Under the pieces are notes generated by a model that saw only the letters and a program-made list of their open reading frames with translations, was not told the DNA's origin and searched no databases. 64,000 nt of DNA from a phage. The translations under genes and the position numbers were made by a program. The stretch lies in NCBI GenBank assembly GCA_027263115.1, contig GCA_027263115.1_3656.1; one strand, 5' to 3'. Below, one piece after another: positions 15,049-62,133 of this stretch (position 1 is the stretch's first letter; every line of letters starts with the position of its first letter).

Positions 15049-16418
15049 TGGAAAAAGGGCAGTATGATGTAGGCACAGATGCTGCCCTCGTTGCAATCAT
15101 GAGCGGTGAGAATGTCTTCGTTTCAGGACCTGCAGGTTGTGGGAAGACGTATCTCATCAACATGATCCAGTCAATGTATGGAGACTCTTGCATAACGGTT
15201 GCCCCGACAGGGGTAGCCGCTTTAAACGTTAATGGAGCAACAGCACACCGAACCTTCGATCTTGCAGCAGGTGTGAGCATGGAGTCAGACTGGACCGCAA
15301 TAAGGGCAAAAACAGCAAAGCCTTTGAAAAGCAAGGCATTTACCATCCTAATTATCGATGAAATCTCTATGATCCGTGCTGATAAGTTTATAGAGATGGA
15401 TAGGAAACTTCGCTTCCTTCGAAAAAATGACAAACCTTTCGGAGGCATACAGGTCATATTGTTTGGCGACTTTTACCAGGCACCTCCTGTTGTCTCTTCT
15501 ATGGAGAAGGAAGCCTACTTCAACTTCTACCATACGGACCTGTGTTGCTATACCGAATCTTGGAAAGAGCTTGACCTCCACAACATAGCCCTAGTAGATC
15601 AGTTCCGACAGGAGTCTATTCGATTTGCCACAATGCTCAACTGTGTTCGTGAGGGTCGTCGCATAAAAGAGGTTGTAGCAGAACTTAATGCTCGCTGTTA
15701 CAAAGGTGGTGTACCAACAGATGCTCTCACAATTTGCGCCACCAACAAACAAGCAGAGGAAGTAAACAGAAGGTTCTATGATGCCATCAACGCCCCAGAG
15801 AAGGTATACACTGGTGAAATGAAGGGTAAGTTTCCCTCCACCCTGCCAGTTGAGCAGGAGATGAAGTTGAAAATTGGCATGAAAGTTATGATAACCGCCA
15901 ACGATGTTGACCCGACGCACAAAGTACCTTATTATGTTAACGGAACACGTGCCACAATTGTTAAATTTAAGAACAAGGCGGTGGTGGTAGAGCTTGAAGA
16001 TGGAACACAGGTTGACATAGAGCAGAGGTTGTGGGAGAATAACGAGTATAAGCCCTCTCAGAGATACAATATTGCAGAAAGGAAGATGGAGAAGTTTATA
16101 GAGAGGGTAGTGATTGGGTCATACAAGCAACTTCCTCTGAAATCTGGGTACGCCGTAACATCTCATAAAAGTCAAGGACTTACGCTAGATTGTTACAACC
16201 TAGACCTTGGAAAGAACGGAGCTTTCTCTCCGGGGATGACGTATGTTGCTTTGAGTCGAGTTAAGACAATACAAGGAATAAACTTGTTGCGTCCACTAAG
16301 AGAAGTTGACATTATTGTTGACCCGCGAGTCGTAGAGTTTTACAATACAACATTCCCTGACTTAGACAAAATTGTCAGGAAAGATTTTGAAACCAGAGCA
16401 GAAGAGGGGGACGTATGA
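15048..16418 (+). CDS. dda: Dda-like SF1B DNA helicase (RecD/Pif1 family)
   Basis: Walker A VSGPAGCGKTY, motif Ia APTGVAA, Walker B LIIDEISM, and C-terminal SHKSQG and ALSRV motifs. Confidence 0.8.
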   Translation: MEKGQYDVGTDAALVAIMSGENVFVSGPAGCGKTYLINMIQSMYGDSCITVAPTGVAALNVNGATAHRTFDLAAGVSMESDWTAIRAKTAKPLKSKAFTILIIDEISMIRADKFIEMDRKLRFLRKNDKPFGGIQVILFGDFYQAPPVVSSMEKEAYFNFYHTDLCCYTESWKELDLHNIALVDQFRQESIRFATMLNCVREGRRIKEVVAELNARCYKGGVPTDALTICATNKQAEEVNRRFYDAINAPEKVYTGEMKGKFPSTLPVEQEMKLKIGMKVMITANDVDPTHKVPYYVNGTRATIVKFKNKAVVVELEDGTQVDIEQRLWENNEYKPSQRYNIAERKMEKFIERVVIGSYKQLPLKSGYAVTSHKSQGLTLDCYNLDLGKNGAFSPGMTYVALSRVKTIQGINLLRPLREVDIIVDPRVVEFYNTTFPDLDKIVRKDFETRAEEGDV

Positions 16419-16756
16419 GTTTGTGGAGAAATATCGTTAACTACGTGTGTGGCAATCCAACTCCTGAAGAGAAGGATGTTGTGATTCACGATTTTACTAA
16501 AAGATCTCGTGAAAAAGATCTACTGCTAACAAAGGTGACTGATAAAGATCCTGCAGTAGGGGACTGGGCAGGTTTTGCGTTTACATCGGACAAATACACC
16601 TTTAACAAAGGTGACTATCTTGTTGTGGATTTTAACGAAGACATCGAGGGTGCTGAACCTTACTATCAGACCCTTATCGTTGCAGGGTGTGTTGATCTCT
16701 CTGCAGGTATGCACAGTTTGATTCTTTTTGAGCTTGACTCTGAAGACCTCCAGTAG
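16415..16756 (+). CDS. hypothetical protein
   Basis: 113-aa ORF, ATGA overlap. Confidence 0.5.
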   Translation: MSLWRNIVNYVCGNPTPEEKDVVIHDFTKRSREKDLLLTKVTDKDPAVGDWAGFAFTSDKYTFNKGDYLVVDFNEDIEGAEPYYQTLIVAGCVDLSAGMHSLILFELDSEDLQ

Positions 16757-16817
16757 TAAGATGTAAGTATAAAGGGGAGGCACTCCTCCCCACAAAAACT
16801 AAGGAGAGCACCAAACG

Positions 16818-18143
16818 ATGAGTAAAACCAAATTAGAACTTACCTGGATAGGTAAAAACGAGCGCAAAAAGTTAGAGCCGCACATTTTGTTAGAAGATTC
16901 TAGCAAGTCTTACCACAGCCAGAAAGTGACCGAAAACGATATTTTTGATAATAAACTGATTTTTGGAGATAACTTATTAGCATTGAAGGCGCTAGAGCAA
17001 GAGTACGCAGGCAAAGTGAAGTGTGTTTACATAGACCCACCATTCAATACCGGGAGGGCTTTTGAGCACTACGATGATAGCCTGGAGCATTCCATTTGGC
17101 TGGGCTTAATGAGGGATAGGTTAGAAATAATTCGTAATCTTCTAAGTGATGATGGGGTAATATTCGTTCACTTAGATGATTGCGAAATGGCGTATTTAAA
17201 AGTTTTGATGGACGAGATTTTTGGTCGTGCAAATCAGTTAAATACCATATCGATGACCACAAATTCCCCTTCGGGATTTAAGGCAACGGGAGCCACAGTT
17301 TTCTCCACAGCAAACTTTTTGCTTGTATATGCAAAAGATCGCACCCAGAAACCGCTTAACAAAATCTATATACCTAAAGGGTATGATACCGGATATAACA
17401 AATACCTATTAAACCCGGATGATCATTATAAAAATTGGACGTGGTGCGGTATTGCCGATGCGTTTGCAAAGGCCAATGGCTATAAAGATGCAAAAGAAGC
17501 CAAGAAAAAACTGCCTGACACATTCGATGATGAATTAGCACAATTTGCAATTGATAATGCAGAACGTGTATTTCAATCTGTTGCAATTGGTGGTGGTGCT
17601 AAAATAAAGAGAAAAGAAACTATAGAGAAGTCAAAGAAAGATAGGGATAAGGTTTATGTACATCCAAATGAGGATGTTGAAGGATTTTATATCGCAAATG
17701 GTAGGCAAATGGTCTTTTACTCCAACAGGCTTTTGGAAATTGACGGTGATATGCAACCTGCGGAACTAATAACTGATGTTTGGACAGACATTAGTTGGAA
17801 TGGAATAGCAAATGAAGGCGGCGTTAGTTTCAAAAATGGGAAAAAACCAGAAGCGCTTTTGAAGCGGATTTTCGAAATGTGTACGCGAGAAGGTGATTTG
17901 GTATTGGATTCATTCGGTGGTTCGGGAACTACTGCCGCTGTAGCTCACAAGATGAAAAGACGTTGGATCTCCATCGAGATTGGTGATCATTGCCATACCC
18001 ATATTATTCCGCGCTTGGAAAAAGTGATCGATGGGGAAGATCAAGGTGGTATTTCTAAGTCTGTAAACTGGCAAGGTGGTGGTGGCTTCCGTTATTACAA
18101 ACTTGCCCCGACCTTAATTGCGAAAGATAAGTCTGATCAATAA
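16818..18143 (+). CDS. DNA methyltransferase, beta class (N6-adenine or N4-cytosine)
   Basis: DPPF motif IV early in protein and FGGSGTT motif I near the C-terminus (beta-class order). Confidence 0.8.
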   Translation: MSKTKLELTWIGKNERKKLEPHILLEDSSKSYHSQKVTENDIFDNKLIFGDNLLALKALEQEYAGKVKCVYIDPPFNTGRAFEHYDDSLEHSIWLGLMRDRLEIIRNLLSDDGVIFVHLDDCEMAYLKVLMDEIFGRANQLNTISMTTNSPSGFKATGATVFSTANFLLVYAKDRTQKPLNKIYIPKGYDTGYNKYLLNPDDHYKNWTWCGIADAFAKANGYKDAKEAKKKLPDTFDDELAQFAIDNAERVFQSVAIGGGAKIKRKETIEKSKKDRDKVYVHPNEDVEGFYIANGRQMVFYSNRLLEIDGDMQPAELITDVWTDISWNGIANEGGVSFKNGKKPEALLKRIFEMCTREGDLVLDSFGGSGTTAAVAHKMKRRWISIEIGDHCHTHIIPRLEKVIDGEDQGGISKSVNWQGGGGFRYYKLAPTLIAKDKSDQ

Positions 18144-18156
18144 AGAGTACAATCAA

Positions 18157-18462
18157 ATGATGAAACGTTATAAACCATACACTTTTGAAATAGATTTCGA
18201 ACTTGACGATATGTTCACTGTAGAAGCTCAGGCAGTTGTCCAGTTGCCAGACCCGGAGTGCCGTGATTCTGATGTTGACTATTACGGATTTAGACAGATC
18301 ACTGATGTGCATGTTTACCACAACGGTGAAGAGGTGGACTTCCACCAACTGCCAAACGATATTCGCCACTCAATTTACAAACGTGCAGCCCGTGAACTAG
18401 AGTCCTATCTGGATGCAGCGACGACAGCAGCTGCATTTGCCGAAGAAGTGGGAGGTTTCTGA
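18157..18462 (+). CDS. hypothetical protein
   Basis: ATG with AAAGAG RBS; track start 18118 overlaps the methyltransferase. Confidence 0.45.
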   Translation: MMKRYKPYTFEIDFELDDMFTVEAQAVVQLPDPECRDSDVDYYGFRQITDVHVYHNGEEVDFHQLPNDIRHSIYKRAARELESYLDAATTAAAFAEEVGGF

Positions 18463-18860
18463 TGATTACAGGTGTGAAGATTCTCCAATACCACTTAACC
18501 AAATTGGAAGATGCTGAAAAAGAGCTTGCAGAAGTTCTGAATAGTGGATATACTTTGCTATCATGCGCCTGCTCAGACACCTACGTTGTGTGGACACTTA
18601 TCCGGAAGGAAGAGCCTGCAGGGATCTTGGTGCCAAACCCTAAGATTATTAGTGAGGTGGATGACTATTCCCAGGACGGCCTGCCAGAAGGCTGGGAAGT
18701 ATGGGAAGGTGGTGAAAACCCTGCACCAGGTAAGTGGGTAAAATATAAACTACGTAGTGGTGCACAGTACGCTGACTACTCTGATGACCTAGACTGGAGT
18801 CATTCTTCACCAGGATCGTCTGCAAGTTCATATGATATCGTTGCTTTTCAGGAAGAATAA
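18462..18860 (+). CDS. hypothetical protein
   Basis: 132-aa ORF. Confidence 0.5.
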   Translation: MITGVKILQYHLTKLEDAEKELAEVLNSGYTLLSCACSDTYVVWTLIRKEEPAGILVPNPKIISEVDDYSQDGLPEGWEVWEGGENPAPGKWVKYKLRSGAQYADYSDDLDWSHSSPGSSASSYDIVAFQEE

Positions 18861-18872
18861 GGAGATAGTGTT

Positions 18873-19355
18873 ATGTCAGATTTTATGTGGAAAGTAGGTT
18901 ACGCAGCTCCTGAAATGTGTGAGGCTTGCTTTGTGAAAATAGGCCGCGAGGATATCGACAAAGTGATCCTTAAGTTTCGTGATGTGGCTGTGATCGGCAA
19001 CCGAGTGCTTAAGCACTTAAAGAATCTGAAGCTCACCAAAAAGAAATTCTTCGGGCTTTTCGAAGAGAAAGTTGATGCTTGGACCCATTGCATTCAGGAA
19101 GCTAAATCTCACTACAGTGCTATCGTTACCCCAGAACGGGTAGCCAAGATGGAAGGACTCATCAACAGCACAGAGTTTGAGTGTCTGAAAGCTGCACTCG
19201 ATAGTTATCCGAAATGCCTCAAGCACTTGGACAAGTATGTAGAAAAGGATGGGGAAATGTATCTCACCCTGGACGCATATTATGAGATGCAAGAAATTTT
19301 AAATTTAGATTTGACATTGGTATCCACCGAGTATACAATAGGTATCCGGGTTTAA
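18873..19355 (+). CDS. hypothetical protein
   Basis: 160-aa ORF with AAGGAGA RBS. Confidence 0.55.
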   Translation: MSDFMWKVGYAAPEMCEACFVKIGREDIDKVILKFRDVAVIGNRVLKHLKNLKLTKKKFFGLFEEKVDAWTHCIQEAKSHYSAIVTPERVAKMEGLINSTEFECLKAALDSYPKCLKHLDKYVEKDGEMYLTLDAYYEMQEILNLDLTLVSTEYTIGIRV

Positions 19356-19362
19356 CACTAGG

Positions 19363-19389
19363 CCCTGCCCGAAAGGGTGGGGCTTTTTG
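19363..19389 (+). terminator. intrinsic terminator
   Basis: gccctgccc-gaaa-gggtggggc hairpin with GNRA-type loop followed by TTTTT; identical hairpin recurs at 31012. Confidence 0.7.
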
Positions 19390-19396
19390 CATTAGG

Positions 19397-20171
19397 AGAC
19401 AGCAAATTGAAATTTATCTACAAAGAACACTACCACAAAGGTGTTGTGTGGAGCCTATTTGACGGATCTGGTGGTGCAGTCATTGACTGGGCAAAAGCTG
19501 GATATCTGTGCCTGTGCTTTAACGCAGAAGGTGCTGACCACGGCAGTTATGCAGAGGTGATCACCGATCATCCAAATATTCACTATGTAGATTATTGGAT
19601 TGATCCATGGTTCCCTCAGGAAACTTTCTGCATGTACCCAGCTCCGGACTTTGTTCTTGCATTTCCTCCGTGCACCCACTTAGCGGTGTCAGGTGCTGCA
19701 CACTTTAAGAAGAAGCTGGCTAAGGACCCGTTGATCCAGATTAATGCTGTAAAGGATGCTCGGGTTGCAGAAGAGTTGGGAGAGATTTACGATTGCCCGT
19801 GGCATGTAGAGAATCCTGTGGGTGTTATGTCCACACTGTGGCGCAAACCTGATTACCGTTTTCACCCTTCTGACTATGGCGGGTATTTACCGGAGGATGA
19901 TGTAAACCCCTGGTTTCCTGAATTTATAGCTCCACGTGATGCCTATCCAAAAATAACTTGCGGCTGGATAGGTAAGGGATTTATAATCCCGGCCACAAAA
20001 CCTGTCCCGCAAATAGTTGACGCGGTTAGCGGGTATTCCATGCAACACGCCAAGCTGGGTGGAAAGAGTGCAAGAACGAAGATGATCCGAAGCCTCACAC
20101 CACGTGGCTGGGCAAAAGCCGTATTCTTAGCAAACGAGCCTGTAGTAAGGAGCAGAATTAATGGGAAGTAA
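19397..20171 (+). CDS. putative DNA cytosine-5 methyltransferase-like protein
   Basis: FDGSGG (motif I-like), PPC...SG (motif IV-like) and ENPVG (ENV motif VI); probable TTG start 7 nt after AGGAGA, track GTG start lies inside the terminator. Confidence 0.55.
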
Positions 20172-22239
20172 ATTTATGGCATCTGCATACAACCGTTTCG
20201 GTGAGCCAAACCCGAAAGCAACTAAGTATAAAAGTGGGGGAAGTGTGAAACGAGACTATCGTGATGAAAAAGAGGTTGAAACTGTAGAGACTGTTTTAGA
20301 AAATACTAAAATTGTCCCTGTTCCACAACAAAATATCGGTCTGATGGCTGCACAATATTTTGGTGTGCGATCAGCATTGTCTCAAGAAGACGGTGTGACA
20401 GTTACTGCAACATATTTCCCATATTACGACCGCTACGGAAATCTGTCAGGTTTCAAAAAGCGTGACTGGACGATTCCTAAAGAGCAAAGGGGCCATTTCT
20501 CAGTTGTTGGCATAGTAAAGGCTAACTCCCAGATGTTTGGTCAAAAGCTGTGTGCATCTTCCAACAACCGTAAGCAGATTAATGTTTGTGAGGGAGAAGG
20601 TGATGTTATTGCAGCATGGCAGGCTGCATATCAAATACAAGTAAAAGGGATTCTCACCAACGCTAAAGCCCCGGCAAAGGTGAAACAGTGGGCTAAAGAG
20701 GTCCAGGACGGGATCGATGCAGTTATCAACGGGGGTGATTTGGCAGGAAAACCCTGCCTGCCTTTTGTCGGAATTAACTGTGGATGTGCAAACGCAGTAG
20801 ATACTTTTGCAAACAATGAGAAATTTATCCGTAGCTACGGAACAGTGGTCCTTGCAATGGACAACGATGCGGCTAACGAGGTAGAGAAGCAAAAACACGT
20901 TATCAAAGGTGTTGAAGCCACACATAATATTGCAGCATTTTTGATGGCTGACAACGTTTACCACGTGGAATATCCTGGCGAGGTAAACGACCCTGATGGT
21001 GTAAAAGATATCCGTGACATGCTGAAGGCTAAAAAGCTGGAAGATATTGTAAACATGTTCCGGCATCCTGTTAAGTATGTGCCTGATGCTGTGTCGGATT
21101 TAGAAGACTTCTCTATCGAATCTTTGCGGAAAAAGACTTCCAACGGGGTAGATATCAGCGCAGAGTTTCCAAAACTGCAAAAAATGCTAAAAGGCTTGCA
21201 CAAAGGGACACTCGTAATGCTTACAGGTCCATCAGGAGGTGGTAAAACAACTGTAGCCAAAAAACTGGAACACTGTATTGCAAGATACCTAATGGACCCG
21301 ACATGTCCAAAGGCCGATGACTACGAAGAGGATGATCGTCTATGCATGATTCATCTTGAGGAGGACCCAGAGGAAGCAATTAACTCCTTGTATGCAAACC
21401 AGTTAGGGTTTGATGTTAAAGAGTTTGTTGAAGATCCTAGCCAGTTTTTAACTGATCAAGAACATGCAGAGATTCACCAATCATGGGCAAAAGCTGGAAA
21501 AATCAAAGTGTTCAAACATTTCGGGTCTATTCCAGTGGACGAGTTGATTACCAAGCTTAAGCAAATGGTCTGCCTGTACCATTGTCGCTATATTGTGCTG
21601 GATCACCTGTCTATGGTAATTTCAGGGCTTAATGTTAAAGATGAGCGAAAAGAACTGGACATGGCTATGACTCAGCTGGCTGCGTTTTGTAAGCAGTTTA
21701 ACGTGTTTATCTTGGTGATCGCTCACCTCAAACGTACAGAGATTGTGCCTCCTAAGGACAAGGATGGTAACCCATTACCTTTCTGGTATCCTGTGCGAAA
21801 AGAGAATTTGCGAGGATCGGCTGGGCTTGAACAGTTGAGTTGGGTAGTCATAGGTGTCGAGGCCGAAGAAATGGTGGATCGTTCTCGTGGGCGTGTCCGT
21901 CTGGTAGGTCTTAAAAACCGTCCAGCAAAAACTTTAGGTATTGCTGACACTTTAGTTATGGACCCACATACAGGTAAGTTCCATGATGCCAGTAATTGGT
22001 ACTGGGACAAAGAAATGCAGATGTTTACAGACGGAGAAGGTGGGGAGGTTGTTTGGAGACCTCAGGCCATGTTTGAGGACCAAGAGCATGCAGTTGTAGA
22101 AACACCTATGGGCAAGGTTGTAGCCGATAAGGTTGTAACTCCTACTATTAAGCCTGTTGACACGCAGGAAGACCTCCAGTACGATGATCCATCCTCTGAT
22201 CCGGTCCCCGGTTTTGAGGGTGATGAAACACCTTTTTAA
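20161..22239 (+). CDS. DNA primase-helicase (Toprim plus DnaB-like helicase)
   Basis: Toprim-like EGEGD and MDNDAANE in the N-terminal half; Walker A GPSGGGKTT and Walker B IVLDHLS in the C-terminal half; acidic tail. Confidence 0.75.
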   Translation: MGSKFMASAYNRFGEPNPKATKYKSGGSVKRDYRDEKEVETVETVLENTKIVPVPQQNIGLMAAQYFGVRSALSQEDGVTVTATYFPYYDRYGNLSGFKKRDWTIPKEQRGHFSVVGIVKANSQMFGQKLCASSNNRKQINVCEGEGDVIAAWQAAYQIQVKGILTNAKAPAKVKQWAKEVQDGIDAVINGGDLAGKPCLPFVGINCGCANAVDTFANNEKFIRSYGTVVLAMDNDAANEVEKQKHVIKGVEATHNIAAFLMADNVYHVEYPGEVNDPDGVKDIRDMLKAKKLEDIVNMFRHPVKYVPDAVSDLEDFSIESLRKKTSNGVDISAEFPKLQKMLKGLHKGTLVMLTGPSGGGKTTVAKKLEHCIARYLMDPTCPKADDYEEDDRLCMIHLEEDPEEAINSLYANQLGFDVKEFVEDPSQFLTDQEHAEIHQSWAKAGKIKVFKHFGSIPVDELITKLKQMVCLYHCRYIVLDHLSMVISGLNVKDERKELDMAMTQLAAFCKQFNVFILVIAHLKRTEIVPPKDKDGNPLPFWYPVRKENLRGSAGLEQLSWVVIGVEAEEMVDRSRGRVRLVGLKNRPAKTLGIADTLVMDPHTGKFHDASNWYWDKEMQMFTDGEGGEVVWRPQAMFEDQEHAVVETPMGKVVADKVVTPTIKPVDTQEDLQYDDPSSDPVPGFEGDETPF

Positions 22240-22297
22240 TGTTTAACAAAGAGTGGGAGGGGTAGTACAACCGCCTCCCCTTTAAGGAGAACTGTAT

Positions 22298-24721
22298 ATG
22301 AGCATGTGGTCGTTCGACTTTGAGTCATCCGGTTTGCTGGAAGACCCAGATCTTTATTATCACTGCGGCCTGTTTAAAGAGCTGAATAAGAACCGTTTTA
22401 TGCTGTTCCTTCCTCTAAATGACCGCACACACTACTCCGAGGAGGATATAGAAAAGGCTAAGAACTTCATTCTGGCAAAGAAAACTCTTTATAAAGATTT
22501 TGAAGTTCGCATAGCAGATTTTTCAGAGTTGGAAGGTTGGCTTACAGGAAATTCTGACTGGTCACCAACAGCTTTGAACTGCCATAACTGCTACAGTTAT
22601 GACTTTATGCTGATGGAAAGATTATCTGGTATTCATTTTGATATGTTCCGTGATCCTAAATGTATGGGGACTATCAACGATCACCAGGTTAACCTGTTTG
22701 ATACGTTGGCGATGAGCCGAATCTTGTGGCCTGATCGCCCTTTACCAAAAGGTTGTCCGGACTCTGTATTCAACCCGGTTACTAAGAAAATGCAGCCTGT
22801 TGGTCCTCACGGCCTTATGGCATGGGGCTACGCCCTTGGTAACCAGAAAGTTCAAATTGATGACTGGCGCGATCTTCCGTTATGGAAGTATGTGGATCGT
22901 GTATTTGAGGACGTTATCATCCAGGAGCTGCTCTGGAAAGAGCTGGTAGCGGAATCAAAAGGTGTATTCTACGGCAAATCTGACATGCAGAACTTTATGT
23001 ACGATCCTGCCAAAGAGAAGCCGAAAGGGTTCAAGAAGATCACCTGGAAGAACGCATTACGTCGAGGCATGTTGCAGCACTTCCTGATGGAGCTGCAGGC
23101 CCGTCAGGGTGTATACTTCGACATAGATGGAGCTATTGCTTTACGTGACCGTTGCGATGCGTGGATGAAAGAAATCGCTGATCGTGTTGAACCACAACTG
23201 CCTTTAAAAGAGCTGTCAATGTCTCAGCGGCCCAAGTTCCCTGAAAAGCCGTTTAACCAAGATGGGACAATCTCTAATAATGGTTGGAAATGGTTAAAAG
23301 ATAAGCTTGGCTATCCTGTGGACATGAGTGCTTTAGAGTTCAAAGCCCCACCTAAGCGAGCATTTACCTCTACAGGAGATGTCAGTAAGATGGGGATAAA
23401 ATGGTGTGAAGAGATGGGCTGCAAAGACCACGATAAGATGGCTGATTTCTTGAGAGGCTATATTAAGGGCACCTCCACACCACAACCTTTACCTAAAGAG
23501 CTAATGGATCAGGCAATAAGTGATCTACAGCAGAAGCGAATGCCGGACTGCAAGATACCTATGAAAATCAGCAATCAGGACGACATTAAGCGATACCTGA
23601 TCAGTGCTGGTTGGCTTCCGACAATGTGGAGAACTAAGGATGTAACTAAAGACAGCAAGAAGAAAGCTTTACCTGATGCAGATGTTGATGCACGAGTATA
23701 TGCATATATGGACGAGCTTTTGGAGTCAGAGTATTGTGACCTAATTATCAACTTCTGGAACAAAACTGATGCTAAGTTCCAGACAACCGTGCACAAGTTC
23801 CGAAGCTTTCCTAACTCCGAAAGGATTAAAAAGGAAGTATTCGGGAAAATACGTAGAAAAGCTAGGGCACTTATTACTTCTCCGCAACTGAAAGATACGT
23901 TTGGACACCTGTGTCCGAATCTTGAAAAATTGAACGGAGAGATGGCTAAAGATATCGTCTTATGGTTATCATTGCGAAACCGCAGATCGGTACTTGATCC
24001 AATCAAGGAGGATAAGGTTGACACTGGTCTTCTTAATCACCCACGTTTGAAGATTGACCATAAGCTTCCTGCTAAAAGCTCTGGATTAACAAACACTTCC
24101 AGACAGAAACACAGTATTTGTGCAAACATGCCTAAACCCTCTCCTAAAGTGGTTATGGGTAAAGAGATGCGTAGCTTGTGGGGTGTTCCTCCAGGATACT
24201 TTGAGATCGGTATCGACGGGTCCAACTTAGAGCAGCTTATCGGGGCTTGGGGTGCCTTTGAGTTCGACAACGGCCTGTATTACGATGTTGTAAGTAACGG
24301 AGACGCACACCAAAACAATGCTGAGGCATATACAAAAGTAGCAGGCAGAGAGGTGTCCCGTAACGACGGTAAACCTATCACGTATGGGGTTATGTACGGG
24401 GCACAAAAAGATAAAGTTGCAGATATGCTGGACATCTCTCCAGAGTTGGGACAAAGGGTAATCGATGCGCTTTGGGATGCCAACCCTGGTCTTAAGGGCC
24501 GTAAAGAGGATCTGGAGAAATTCTGGGAAGCAACGGGTAAGAAGTTTATCTACTCTTTTGATGGTCATGCCATCTGGACCCGATCTAAACACTCTTTACT
24601 TAATGCATACCAACAGAATGGTGGTGCATCGCTGTGTGACTTGGTTGGGATACTTATGCACCACCAAATGGTGAAGCGTGGGTGGTACGATGAAGGTGTT
24701 CGTCGTATTATTTATTACCAT
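22298..24721 (+). CDS. family A DNA polymerase, exon 1 (3-5 exonuclease and polymerase motifs A and B)
   Basis: T7-like exo motif DFESSGLL...HCG, HGLMAWGYALG, motif B RNDGKPITYGVMYG; exon end placed at 24721 after His codon. Confidence 0.8.
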
Positions 24722-60217: not shown

Positions 60218-60532
60218 CTACCAGGTTACTGTCAAGTAGGCAACCGTATTATTTTTCTCTGGGGAGATGCCAACAACATCTACCTGCAGACCTCCTGCCC
60301 TTAAATCTCCAACAATGTGCGGGAAGTAATCTGAGAGATGCGAGGGTAGATTTATCGAAAATCCGCACCCCAGAAAGCCTGCTAACGCTTTATTTTGTAT
60401 CTCCCCTACAATCGCATCATAAATGGAGTTAAGCTCGTCAGGGAGCGTTACAGGGCGTTTTAGCGCTAGCTGGTGTAATTTGTCCTTAGCACTCATTTTC
60501 ATTTCAGGTCTACCTCTGGGGGTGCCAACCAC
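60218..60532 (-). CDS. hypothetical protein
   Basis: 104-aa ORF. Confidence 0.5.
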   Translation of the reverse strand: MVGTPRGRPEMKMSAKDKLHQLALKRPVTLPDELNSIYDAIVGEIQNKALAGFLGCGFSINLPSHLSDYFPHIVGDLRAGGLQVDVVGISPEKNNTVAYLTVTW

Positions 60533-61032
60533 ATAAACGGCGGCAAGTCTAAACGGTTTTTCTTATCCCACACAAAATATGCATATGCTTGCCCGTCAGT
60601 TCTGCCGTTTGATTGAAATGATGGACGCTTAGATATTGTGATCACAGTAGTAGGTGCATTATCAAGCCACCATTCAAATCTGGCTTTGCTTTCCAGAAAA
60701 TTAAGACGCAAAAGCATAATAACTACGTCAGCATCTTTCAACGCCTTGTCTACAAACTCACGAGCCAGGCTGTATGGTGGGTTGGTGATAATACAGTCAA
60801 CATGGTTGTATTCTGTATTCAGATAGTCAACACCTTCTTGTATTTCTCCCCATGCAGATCCTAACGGCATACGGGAGTAGAACACACCTGAGGCACTATT
60901 CCTGCAAGGCTCTAAGTAGGTCCAGTCTTCTGGGAACGGAATAAGGTCATACAGCCCTTCTGCACACCACTCCGGTGTCACATACTCATCGTAGGCGTTA
61001 CGTTGTTCATCAGGTTTTCTAGCACAAGTCAT
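60499..61032 (-). CDS. small Dam-like DNA N6-adenine methyltransferase
   Basis: IITNPPY motif IV (NPPY); 177 aa, typical of compact phage Dam-family enzymes. Confidence 0.65.
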   Translation of the reverse strand: MTCARKPDEQRNAYDEYVTPEWCAEGLYDLIPFPEDWTYLEPCRNSASGVFYSRMPLGSAWGEIQEGVDYLNTEYNHVDCIITNPPYSLAREFVDKALKDADVVIMLLRLNFLESKARFEWWLDNAPTTVITISKRPSFQSNGRTDGQAYAYFVWDKKNRLDLPPFMWLAPPEVDLK

Positions 61033-61083
61033 GCAAATCTCCAGATCATAAAAGCCCTCCGAAGAGGGCTTTAGAATTAATGT

Positions 61084-62133
61084 TTAAGCTTCTTCGACAA
61101 TTCCTGCACCCAGGATTTTTTCATTGAGCTCTTTTGCTGTTTTAATAATATTGTCCACCAGACGCTTGCGAGTCTTATCTTTCACCTTAACCTCTTCACC
61201 GCCGTTCAGAGTAGTCTTCAATTGAGACAGAATATCCTGAAGTTCAACGACAGAGAATCTCTGCAGATCTTCTGAAGTAATCTCACTCAGGGCAATTCTG
61301 ACGGTCTCGCCACTTTCCATCTGCAGATTCAGGAACACAGTGTGAACATCACCTTTCGAACCACCCGCTTTTGCAGATTCAACAGCATGAACTAACTCAT
61401 CTAAAGATGTGCACTGGTGAATCTCCGGAAGACCTGCTTCACCTAACACGCCTTCTTCATCACCTTTTGCCAGAAGCTTTTTCGGTTTTTGTCCGTTCTG
61501 GATGCGTTGTATGTTGCCTTCATCCAGAATAATAGCTCCAGTGCGTGCTGCCAGCTCTTCTCCGTCCAACCACACTTCGCCACCAGCTGTGATGGATGCG
61601 ATCTCATCTTCTGTCAGCACCCCACCGTAGTATTTTTCGATCAGGCGTTCAAAACGTTTTTTCCAGTAGCTGACCTGAGTATTCATGTTCACACCGTTAC
61701 CATAAGTGCCACCTTGATAGTAGTGGAACATAAACTCTGTGTCCGGAGCCACAGTACGTTCTTTACAACCAAGCCATAAGATTGTTCCAGCAGAGCAGCA
61801 CATCCCTTCAGCATGTGCAACAACGCTTGCCTGAGACTCTCGGAATGCCTGCAGATAAGCCATTGCAATGTGCACGCAACCCCCAGGGCTATTGATGATC
61901 ACCCGAATGCTTTCTTCCGGCTGAGCCATACGGATCGTCTGCAGACGAGACATATGATCTTGTAAGTCTTCCAAATCGTCGATATAAAGAACGTGGTCAA
62001 CAACAGGTGTTGGGTAGCTGTATGTTTCCATGATACCGCCCGGCATACCAAACATTTTATTACTCATAGGTTCGAAACCGTTCTGTTTTTCTTTCATGCC
62101 GTGTACCATGGTGCTGCGAGGTGTTAAATTCAT
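61084..62133 (-). CDS. ClpP-like serine protease (S14/S49 fold)
   Basis: INSPGG, catalytic Ser context GMCCSAG, His in FMFHYYQGG; long C-terminal extension. Confidence 0.7.
   Translation of the reverse strand: MNLTPRSTMVHGMKEKQNGFEPMSNKMFGMPGGIMETYSYPTPVVDHVLYIDDLEDLQDHMSRLQTIRMAQPEESIRVIINSPGGCVHIAMAYLQAFRESQASVVAHAEGMCCSAGTILWLGCKERTVAPDTEFMFHYYQGGTYGNGVNMNTQVSYWKKRFERLIEKYYGGVLTEDEIASITAGGEVWLDGEELAARTGAIILDEGNIQRIQNGQKPKKLLAKGDEEGVLGEAGLPEIHQCTSLDELVHAVESAKAGGSKGDVHTVFLNLQMESGETVRIALSEITSEDLQRFSVVELQDILSQLKTTLNGGEEVKVKDKTRKRLVDNIIKTAKELNEKILGAGIVEEA

Follow-up and report, generated by a model that had tools for sequence, protein, structure and literature searches.

Three orphan DNA methyltransferases of different classes in a Vequintavirus genome, among them a compact C5 enzyme with a likely TTG start

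A stretch of 64,000 nucleotides of phage DNA (GenBank assembly GCA_027263115.1, contig GCA_027263115.1_3656.1; hereafter the window) had been read from its letters alone as encoding three DNA methyltransferases of different classes. The three open reading frames (ORFs) are there as described, and they fall into the beta, C5 and gamma classes. The first (16818..18143, forward strand) encodes an orphan amino-methyltransferase of the beta class, 441 amino acids (aa) long and similar to type III Mod subunits, as judged from Pfam family PF01555, PADLOC and motif order. The second (19407..20171, forward strand) encodes a C5-cytosine DNA methyltransferase of the phage 'Dcm-like' family, with 254 aa and a probable TTG start, identified through its motifs, fold and homologues. 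The third (60499..61032, reverse strand) encodes a minimal gamma-class N6-adenine DNA methyltransferase of 177 aa whose NPPY motif occupies aa 84-87, recognised by its motif order, its fold and an orthologue.

The segment 16000-22500 is 99.8% identical in nucleotides, over its full length (6.5 kb), to Escherichia phage RudolfGeigy (Bas52, MZ501102), a Vequintavirus (rV5-like myovirus) of the BASEL collection, and 92-98% identical to about 120 further Vequintavirus genomes, whereas the window as a whole is colinear with 47.6-111.6 kb of phage Bas51 (WalterGehring). These matches identify the window as part of the genome of a Vequintavirus, that is, an rV5-like myovirus of E. coli. The order of genes in Bas52 over this stretch is DNA helicase, hypothetical protein, putative N6 adenine methyltransferase (bas52_0070), three hypothetical proteins, Dcm-like C5 cytosine methyltransferase (bas52_0074), DNA primase/helicase and DNA polymerase. 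Gene order, product names and the TTG start of the C5 gene are as in the window in Bas52, rV5, Bas51 and the other Vequintavirus records (about 120), with essentially no difference between Bas52 and the window, and with 438 of 441, 252 of 254 and 176 of 177 residues identical in the Bas51 versions of the Mod-like, C5 and gamma-class proteins. The GenBank record of Bas52 calls the 441-aa and 177-aa products "putative N6 adenine methyltransferase" and the third "Dcm-like C5 cytosine methyltransferase". These genes are known: GenBank has listed them, with their names and the TTG start, since rV5, and the BASEL annotations of near-identical phages list them too. The finding is therefore real but ordinary and has small value as a discovery. 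The present analysis establishes the identity, fold and motifs of the genes and the support for the start codon. Published experiments support two of the three activities, that of the GATC enzyme through a near-identical orthologue and that of the C5 family through a homologue with 53% identity.

The best-supported start of the C5 gene, from the signals around it and from comparison with relatives, is the TTG at 19407-19409, in frame with a stop codon that ends at 20171. The sequence-only reading was right about the TTG and wrong about its place, since the position of about 19397 that it gave is that of the Shine-Dalgarno sequence, 10 nt upstream. This sequence, AGGAGA (19394..19399, forward strand; annotated as a ribosome-binding site in Murica and Mangalyan), is separated from the TTG by a spacer of 7 nt, just as had been claimed, and the terminator reported upstream of the start is real as well, with a stem at 19360-19385 followed by a T run. 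It is also correct that no ATG lies near the 5′ end: the first in-frame ATG, at 19632, is codon 76 and falls beyond the S-adenosylmethionine (SAM) loop F-D-G-S-G-G (residues 18-23), so that a non-ATG start is required. Two further candidates, the in-frame GTG codons at 19377 and 19446, had been missed.

Comparison with relatives points to the TTG. The start is placed at 19407 in six GenBank records, namely rV5 (ORF231), Murica (with annotated ribosome-binding site and terminator), FV3, JEP1, Mangalyan and Bas52. In a metagenomic homologue with 79% identity (P0002), a GTG stands six bases after an AGGAGG, exactly at the codon aligned with the TTG of the window, and the codons that follow differ between the two mostly by synonymous changes (ATT/ATC, TAT/TAC, CAT/CAC, GTC/GTT, GTA/GTG), which argues that the N-terminal stretch is translated. 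In this line, seven of the eight variable sites after the TTG among vequintaviruses are third codon positions. Another relative (P0005) has retained the terminator and starts with an ATG nine codons further in, and the Drexlerviridae homologue, that of phage Bas06, also has an ATG start, with an N-terminus 9 residues shorter than that of the window. TTG starts are uncommon, not exceptional, in a phage of the Bas51 type, whose annotation lists TTG for 9 of 230 coding sequences, GTG for 17 and ATG for 203.

A start at GTG 19446 was rejected, as it would give an N-terminus shorter than in any aligned homologue and would truncate the first beta strand. The start at GTG 19377, which would yield a protein of 264 aa, gives the longest ORF and is annotated in two GenBank records, JES2013 and NHEP1; these two records speak against the TTG. 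However, GTG 19377 lies within the 3′ arm of the terminator hairpin with no purine-rich Shine-Dalgarno sequence before it, the 10 extra residues are conserved in no homologue of the alignment, the nearest of the divergent homologues has its first codon, preceded by an AGGAGG of its own, exactly where the TTG aligns, and the remaining six records, that of the first rV5 annotation among them, start at 19407. Altogether, a beginning of the gene at GTG 19377 is very improbable, and the TTG at 19407 is kept in what follows.

With the start so placed, the protein has 254 aa and not 258 as first estimated. It is indeed short in comparison with canonical C5 enzymes, whereas its size is normal for its own family, which comprises 3,545 database clusters at an expectation value (E) of 0.001 or less, nearly all of 225-260 aa, and is present in 1,502 of 50,697 phage records. 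The protein matches the profile phrog_757 'DNA methyltransferase' over its full length (E 5.9e-86, residues 2-251). In an alignment of 120 homologues, F18, G20, S21 and G22 of motif I (F18-D-G-S-G-G) are at least 90% conserved, motif IV with the catalytic cysteine (P87-P88-C89) is invariant, motif VI (E135-N136-P137) is likewise invariant and followed by a V138 conserved to at least 90%, forming an ENP(V) variant of ENV, and R228-S229 and P232-R233, the RS(L)(T)PR signature, are invariant too. A 120-sequence profile of the family returned nothing usable in sequence searches of Pfam, NCBIfam, PADLOC and the Protein Data Bank (PDB), and the assignment to the C5 class therefore rests on motifs, fold and homologues. 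The window protein stays below the curated thresholds of Pfam and NCBIfam, and its link to PF00145 exists at the level of the family, with 74 of the 120 relatives touching this model at E of 1 or less (best E 1.3e-6). Structure prediction, the check by which the sequence-only reading had proposed to judge this protein, revealed a C5-methyltransferase fold: the AlphaFold model built from the 120-homologue alignment reached a predicted local distance difference test score (pLDDT) of 92.6 and a predicted template modelling score (pTM) of 0.91, and Foldseek agrees with the C5 fold. Moreover, the gene is under strong purifying selection, with a ratio of nonsynonymous to synonymous divergence (dN/dS) of about 0.02 and a dS of up to 0.49 among seven vequintaviruses.

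What makes the protein short is its recognition region, which spans only about 75 residues from motif VIII to motif IX, most of them themselves conserved; in the bacterial type II C5 enzymes (320-390 aa) this region is much larger. Among C5 enzymes, DNMT3 is the one known to have the smallest recognition domain, and it is because the recognition region of the window protein is so small that the DNMT3 catalytic domain is the nearest solved fold. The resemblance does not extend to sequence, as identity to DNMT3A/DNMT3B, M.HhaI, M.HaeIII and the prophage CP-933R enzyme (3g7u) is only 12-18%, and the window protein, unlike DNMT3 and the bacterial C5 enzymes, has no recognisable GN(A/V)P motif X at its C-terminus and falls below the PF00145 threshold.

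The function of this family was advanced by work on phage K42, which is 95.4% identical to KarlJaspers (Bas06) and whose mutations escaping a retron were all found in a 711-bp gene for a 'Dcm-like C5 cytosine methyltransferase', which triggers retron Ec86/Eco1 (bioRxiv 10.1101/2023.08.16.553469). Expression of the K42 Dcm raised the level of 5-methylcytosine (5mC) in the multicopy single-stranded DNA (msDNA) of Ec86, as measured by liquid chromatography coupled to mass spectrometry (LC-MS), a C82A/E128A/K175A/K176A mutant was inactive, and the authors superposed an AlphaFold model of the protein on DNMT3A (bioRxiv 10.1101/2023.08.16.553469). The Bas06 gene also measures 711 bp, and its product is 53% identical to the C5 protein of the window over the full length (E 3e-85). 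The published K42 residue numbers fall on the PPC, ENP and PKK motifs of the family. The K42/Bas06 enzyme shares with that of the window its membership in phrog_757, the PPC, ENP and RSLTPRG motifs and a compact size (236 versus 254 aa), whereas the phages differ, that of the K42/Bas06 enzyme being a siphovirus of 51 kb and the source of the window a myovirus of 137 kb.

A C5 fold could also serve another product, either by acting on RNA in the manner of Dnmt2 or by transferring another group, as a carboxy-SAM (Cx-SAM)-dependent DNA C5-carboxymethyltransferase does. Against this stand the full-length homologue, 53% identical, that forms 5mC in DNA in vivo, the invariance of the active-site motifs across the family and the constant location of the gene among replication genes; moreover, no Cx-SAM synthase was noticed in the gene list of Bas51. 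We consider such a product very improbable, and formation of 5mC in DNA remains the favoured activity.

Several observations nevertheless weigh against this view of the C5 enzyme. Only for K42 Dcm, with its 53% identity, has formation of 5mC in DNA been measured by LC-MS, so for the window enzyme it would hold by homology, and the window protein taken alone has no match in Pfam, NCBIfam, PADLOC or the PDB sequences. The searched literature held no 5mC methylome of a vequintavirus, with only N6-methyladenine (m6A) called for Bas51, and nothing direct was found there on restriction digests of rV5-like DNA or on the sensitivity of Vequintavirinae to Ec86. As for the target, CCWGG was carried over to K42 Dcm from E. 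coli Dcm, with mutagenesis of the msDNA site as its only support and no mapping (bioRxiv 10.1101/2023.08.16.553469). The variable loop before motif IX reads …PQIVDAVSGYSMQH… in the window and …KEDDKDNPGW… in K42/Bas06, being two residues longer in the window, which also carries an isoleucine at the position of K176. CCWGG occurs at 0.69-0.88 of its expected frequency, an uninformative ratio, and site frequencies do not decide on specificity, since GTAC is still depleted where it is methylated. The target site of the window enzyme can thus be inferred at most, and it may differ from that of K42.

For the 177-aa protein, the evidence comes closer to the enzyme itself. Motif I precedes NPPY (motif IV) with no intervening domain, and the catalytic fold is that of M.TaqI, which together define the gamma class. 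The protein does not reach the thresholds of the Dam families (alpha-class PF02086; phage Dam PF05869/TIGR01712), and in sequence models it gives sub-threshold matches only (EcoRI_methylase, phage Dam, Eco57I). Its earlier description as 'Dam-like' is apt in so far as the enzyme is compact and has a GATC-methylating orthologue, whereas in class it is a gamma-class, M.TaqI-like domain devoid of a target recognition domain (TRD) and not a classical Dam. That orthologue is bas51_0176, in which mutations D69G, D79G and T83P in 'an N6 adenine methyltransferase' allow Bas51 to escape retrons, the enzyme being a trigger of retrons Asa1 and Squ1 (PMC12548924). Aspartate, aspartate and threonine occupy positions 69, 79 and 83 only in the 177-aa protein; these residues are shared by bas51_0176, and the single difference between the two proteins lies near the C-terminus. 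The source data of the same study list 1405 methylated GATC adenines (m6A) in the wild type and 35 in the T83P mutant (PMC12548924). We counted 703 GATC sites, that is, 1406 adenines, in the Bas51 genome, so that GATC methylation is complete and host Dam contributes almost nothing. By its near identity to this orthologue, the 177-aa enzyme is taken to be a functional analogue of Dam.

The 441-aa protein matches PF01555 (N6_N4_Mtase) at E 1.5e-42 with 146.5 bits against a cutoff of 26.7, and it shows the motif order of the beta class, with DPPF (motif IV, aa 73-76) before FGGSG (motif I, aa 365-369). The PADLOC model MTase_III PDLC03636 is matched at E 6.9e-205 over profile positions 2-444 of 575. 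The closest solved relatives are the H. pylori Mod 6k0w (1.2e-28) and the EcoP15I Mod 4zcf (2.7e-24), type III Mod subunits which share the beta-class order and a strong match in the catalytic core, whereas they measure 618-644 aa and the window enzyme lacks the C-terminal part of the profile, about 130 positions. A complete type III restriction-modification (RM) system was rejected because no Res gene is present: none flanks the Mod-like gene, whose upstream neighbours are rIIA, rIIB and a helicase of 456 aa. The enzyme is thus an orphan. Between the two methyltransferase genes, a small ORF (18118-18462, phrog_4240) shows weak matches to phrog_1573 (E 3.6e-5) and phrog_2060 (E 0.009), both named 'DNA methyltransferase'.

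A second adenine mark bears on the target of this enzyme. The published data for Bas51 list 509 methylated GTAC adenines in the wild type and 511 in T83P, a methylation that was not assigned to a gene (PMC12548924). The genome has 258 GTAC sites, or 516 adenines by our count, so that GTAC is fully methylated, and by an enzyme other than the 177-aa one, as the mutation leaves it unchanged. Taken together, the published counts and our site counts indicate that GATC and GTAC are both methylated to completion. A candidate for the GTAC mark, besides the Mod-like enzyme, lies outside the window: a fourth methyltransferase, bas51_0200 (Bas51 MZ501111, 124069-124887, reverse strand), of 272 aa, with EPSAGRG and GNPPF motifs in gamma order and an annotated TTG start, which is conserved in 121 vequintavirus records and has no sequence relatives in the PDB and only sub-threshold matches in Pfam. 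By the annotation of Bas51, two of the four methyltransferase genes thus start with TTG, against the 9 of 230 coding sequences overall. GTAC would be written by either bas51_0200 or the Mod-like enzyme, and the approximately 350 'other' methylated sites of Bas51 may come from whichever of the two does not write GTAC. A beta-class enzyme of known structure, related to the 441-aa protein and specific for GTAC, was sought and the idea set aside, since PDB 1NW5 (M.RsrI) matches only marginally (E 0.004) and lends GTAC no support.

The explanation that we favour, and hold to be very probably correct as a whole, is that of a Vequintavirus equipped with a compact C5 enzyme, a gamma-class GATC enzyme and a Mod-like enzyme devoid of Res, all of them orphans. 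The window would carry three of the four orphan DNA methyltransferases of the phage, which would mark newly made phage DNA. The C5 gene, located in the replication module, would be initiated at TTG 19407 through the AGGAGA, its end overlapping the start codon of the primase/helicase gene, and its product would follow the standard mechanism, in which Cys89 (PPC) attacks C6 and Glu135 (ENP) protonates N3. The TRD-less M.TaqI-like domain of 177 aa would methylate the adenine of every GATC, and the Mod-like beta-class enzyme would probably make one remaining m6A mark, at GTAC or at an asymmetric site.

Orphan phage methyltransferases are classically regarded as anti-restriction devices, and the sequence-only reading had suggested a multi-layered protection of phage DNA from restriction. 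The suggestion is plausible in principle, as methylation of GATC and GTAC is complete in Bas51 virions, host Dam by itself accounting for only 35 of the 1406 GATC adenines, and GATC is not avoided (observed/expected 0.98-1.00), which fits a protected site. However, in the BASEL study the Vequintavirinae, Bas52 being in the collection, were 'exceptionally susceptible' to all types of RM systems tested and apparently lacked 'any effective protection' (PMC8594841). This laboratory sensitivity counts against the idea, and an anti-restriction benefit is unproven. Methylation protects only against enzymes whose cleavage sites are the methylated motifs (GATC, GTAC and a C5 site), and any gain in evading such enzymes is for now inferred. 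GTAC, moreover, is under-represented (0.59-0.63) although methylated, and many GC-rich hexamer palindromes are absent, which indicates that site avoidance, and not methylation, covers much of the risk. In the window (1-64000), the observed/expected ratio is 0.63 for GTAC and 0.53 for CTAG, both depleted, with GATC at expectation; CCCGGG, CCGCGG, CGGCCG, CTCGAG, GCCGGC, GGCGCC and GTCGAC are missing, and each of TGGCCA and CGATCG is found a single time where about 8 would be expected. Experiments with these enzymes or with relatives have shown two phenotypes only, toxicity and the triggering of retrons (PMC12548924; bioRxiv 10.1101/2023.08.16.553469). Phage methyltransferases of these families trigger the retrons Ec86/Eco1, Asa1 and Squ1, so that they can be a liability as well as a shield. 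Layered protection as the main selected role of the three enzymes thus seems to us a serious possibility that falls somewhat short of even chances.

The region around the start of the C5 gene offers further hints on how this enzyme could be controlled. A predicted, near-consensus sigma-70 promoter-like site (19311..19339, forward strand; TTGACA-17 nt-TACAAT, matching at 11 of 12 positions and ranking first in 16300-20400) lies within the 3′ end of the upstream ORF, whose TAA stop stands at 19353-19355, and 21 nt upstream of the terminator hairpin; it coincides with the promoter annotated as P231 in the rV5 record. The intrinsic terminator-like hairpin (19360..19388, forward strand; predicted by folding and annotated as a terminator in Murica) has 11 pairs and a GAAA loop, its arms being AGGCCCTGCCC-GAAA-GGGTGGGGCTT, followed by TTTTT, and it contains the GTG at 19377. 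In the alignment of eight vequintavirus genomes, which began at 19320 and so leaves the -35 hexamer (19311-19316) outside, the promoter-like site including its -10 hexamer is invariant except for two substitutions in FV3 (19325 and 19328), and the leader 19329-19410 shows one substitution in one genome. The same holds for the intergenic leader proper, 51 nt at 19356-19406, with one substitution in one of the eight genomes, in contrast with the synonymous divergence of the adjacent C5 gene. Transcripts from the promoter-like site would open with the terminator and then reach the Shine-Dalgarno sequence and the TTG, and the leader could be an attenuator or a dosage-limiting device for the methyltransferase and the downstream replication genes. 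At the other end of the gene, the last 11 nt are shared with the primase/helicase gene (20161..22239, forward strand), whose ATG lies in the overlap and whose AAGGAG (20148-20153) falls within the C5 reading frame. By this arrangement, translation of a replication gene that is essential would probably be coupled to that of a methyltransferase starting at TTG.

A broader combination of these elements can be conceived, in which the C5 enzyme does not copy host Dcm, its longer loop giving a different and possibly very short target, the invariant leader limits a toxic methyltransferase while feeding the primase/helicase, and GTAC is written by the truncated Mod-like enzyme. That all of this holds together we regard as unlikely, perhaps one chance among several; if true, GTAC would represent an unusual palindromic specificity for the type III Mod family.

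Two minor observations concern the neighbourhood and the database records. Between the primase/helicase and the DNA polymerase, Bas51 and JES2013 contain a gene for a homing (HNH) endonuclease which is absent from the window and from Bas52, the insertion site corresponding by comparison to 22292-22338 of the window versus 69927-70704 of Bas51. Lastly, between about 16 and 39 unannotated GenBank records labelled 'Campylobacter phage' (MG0656xx, host C. jejuni), found as database matches to 16000-22500 and 60300-61200 of the window, are 97-100% identical to E. coli rV5-like phages and are probably mislabelled or contaminant assemblies.

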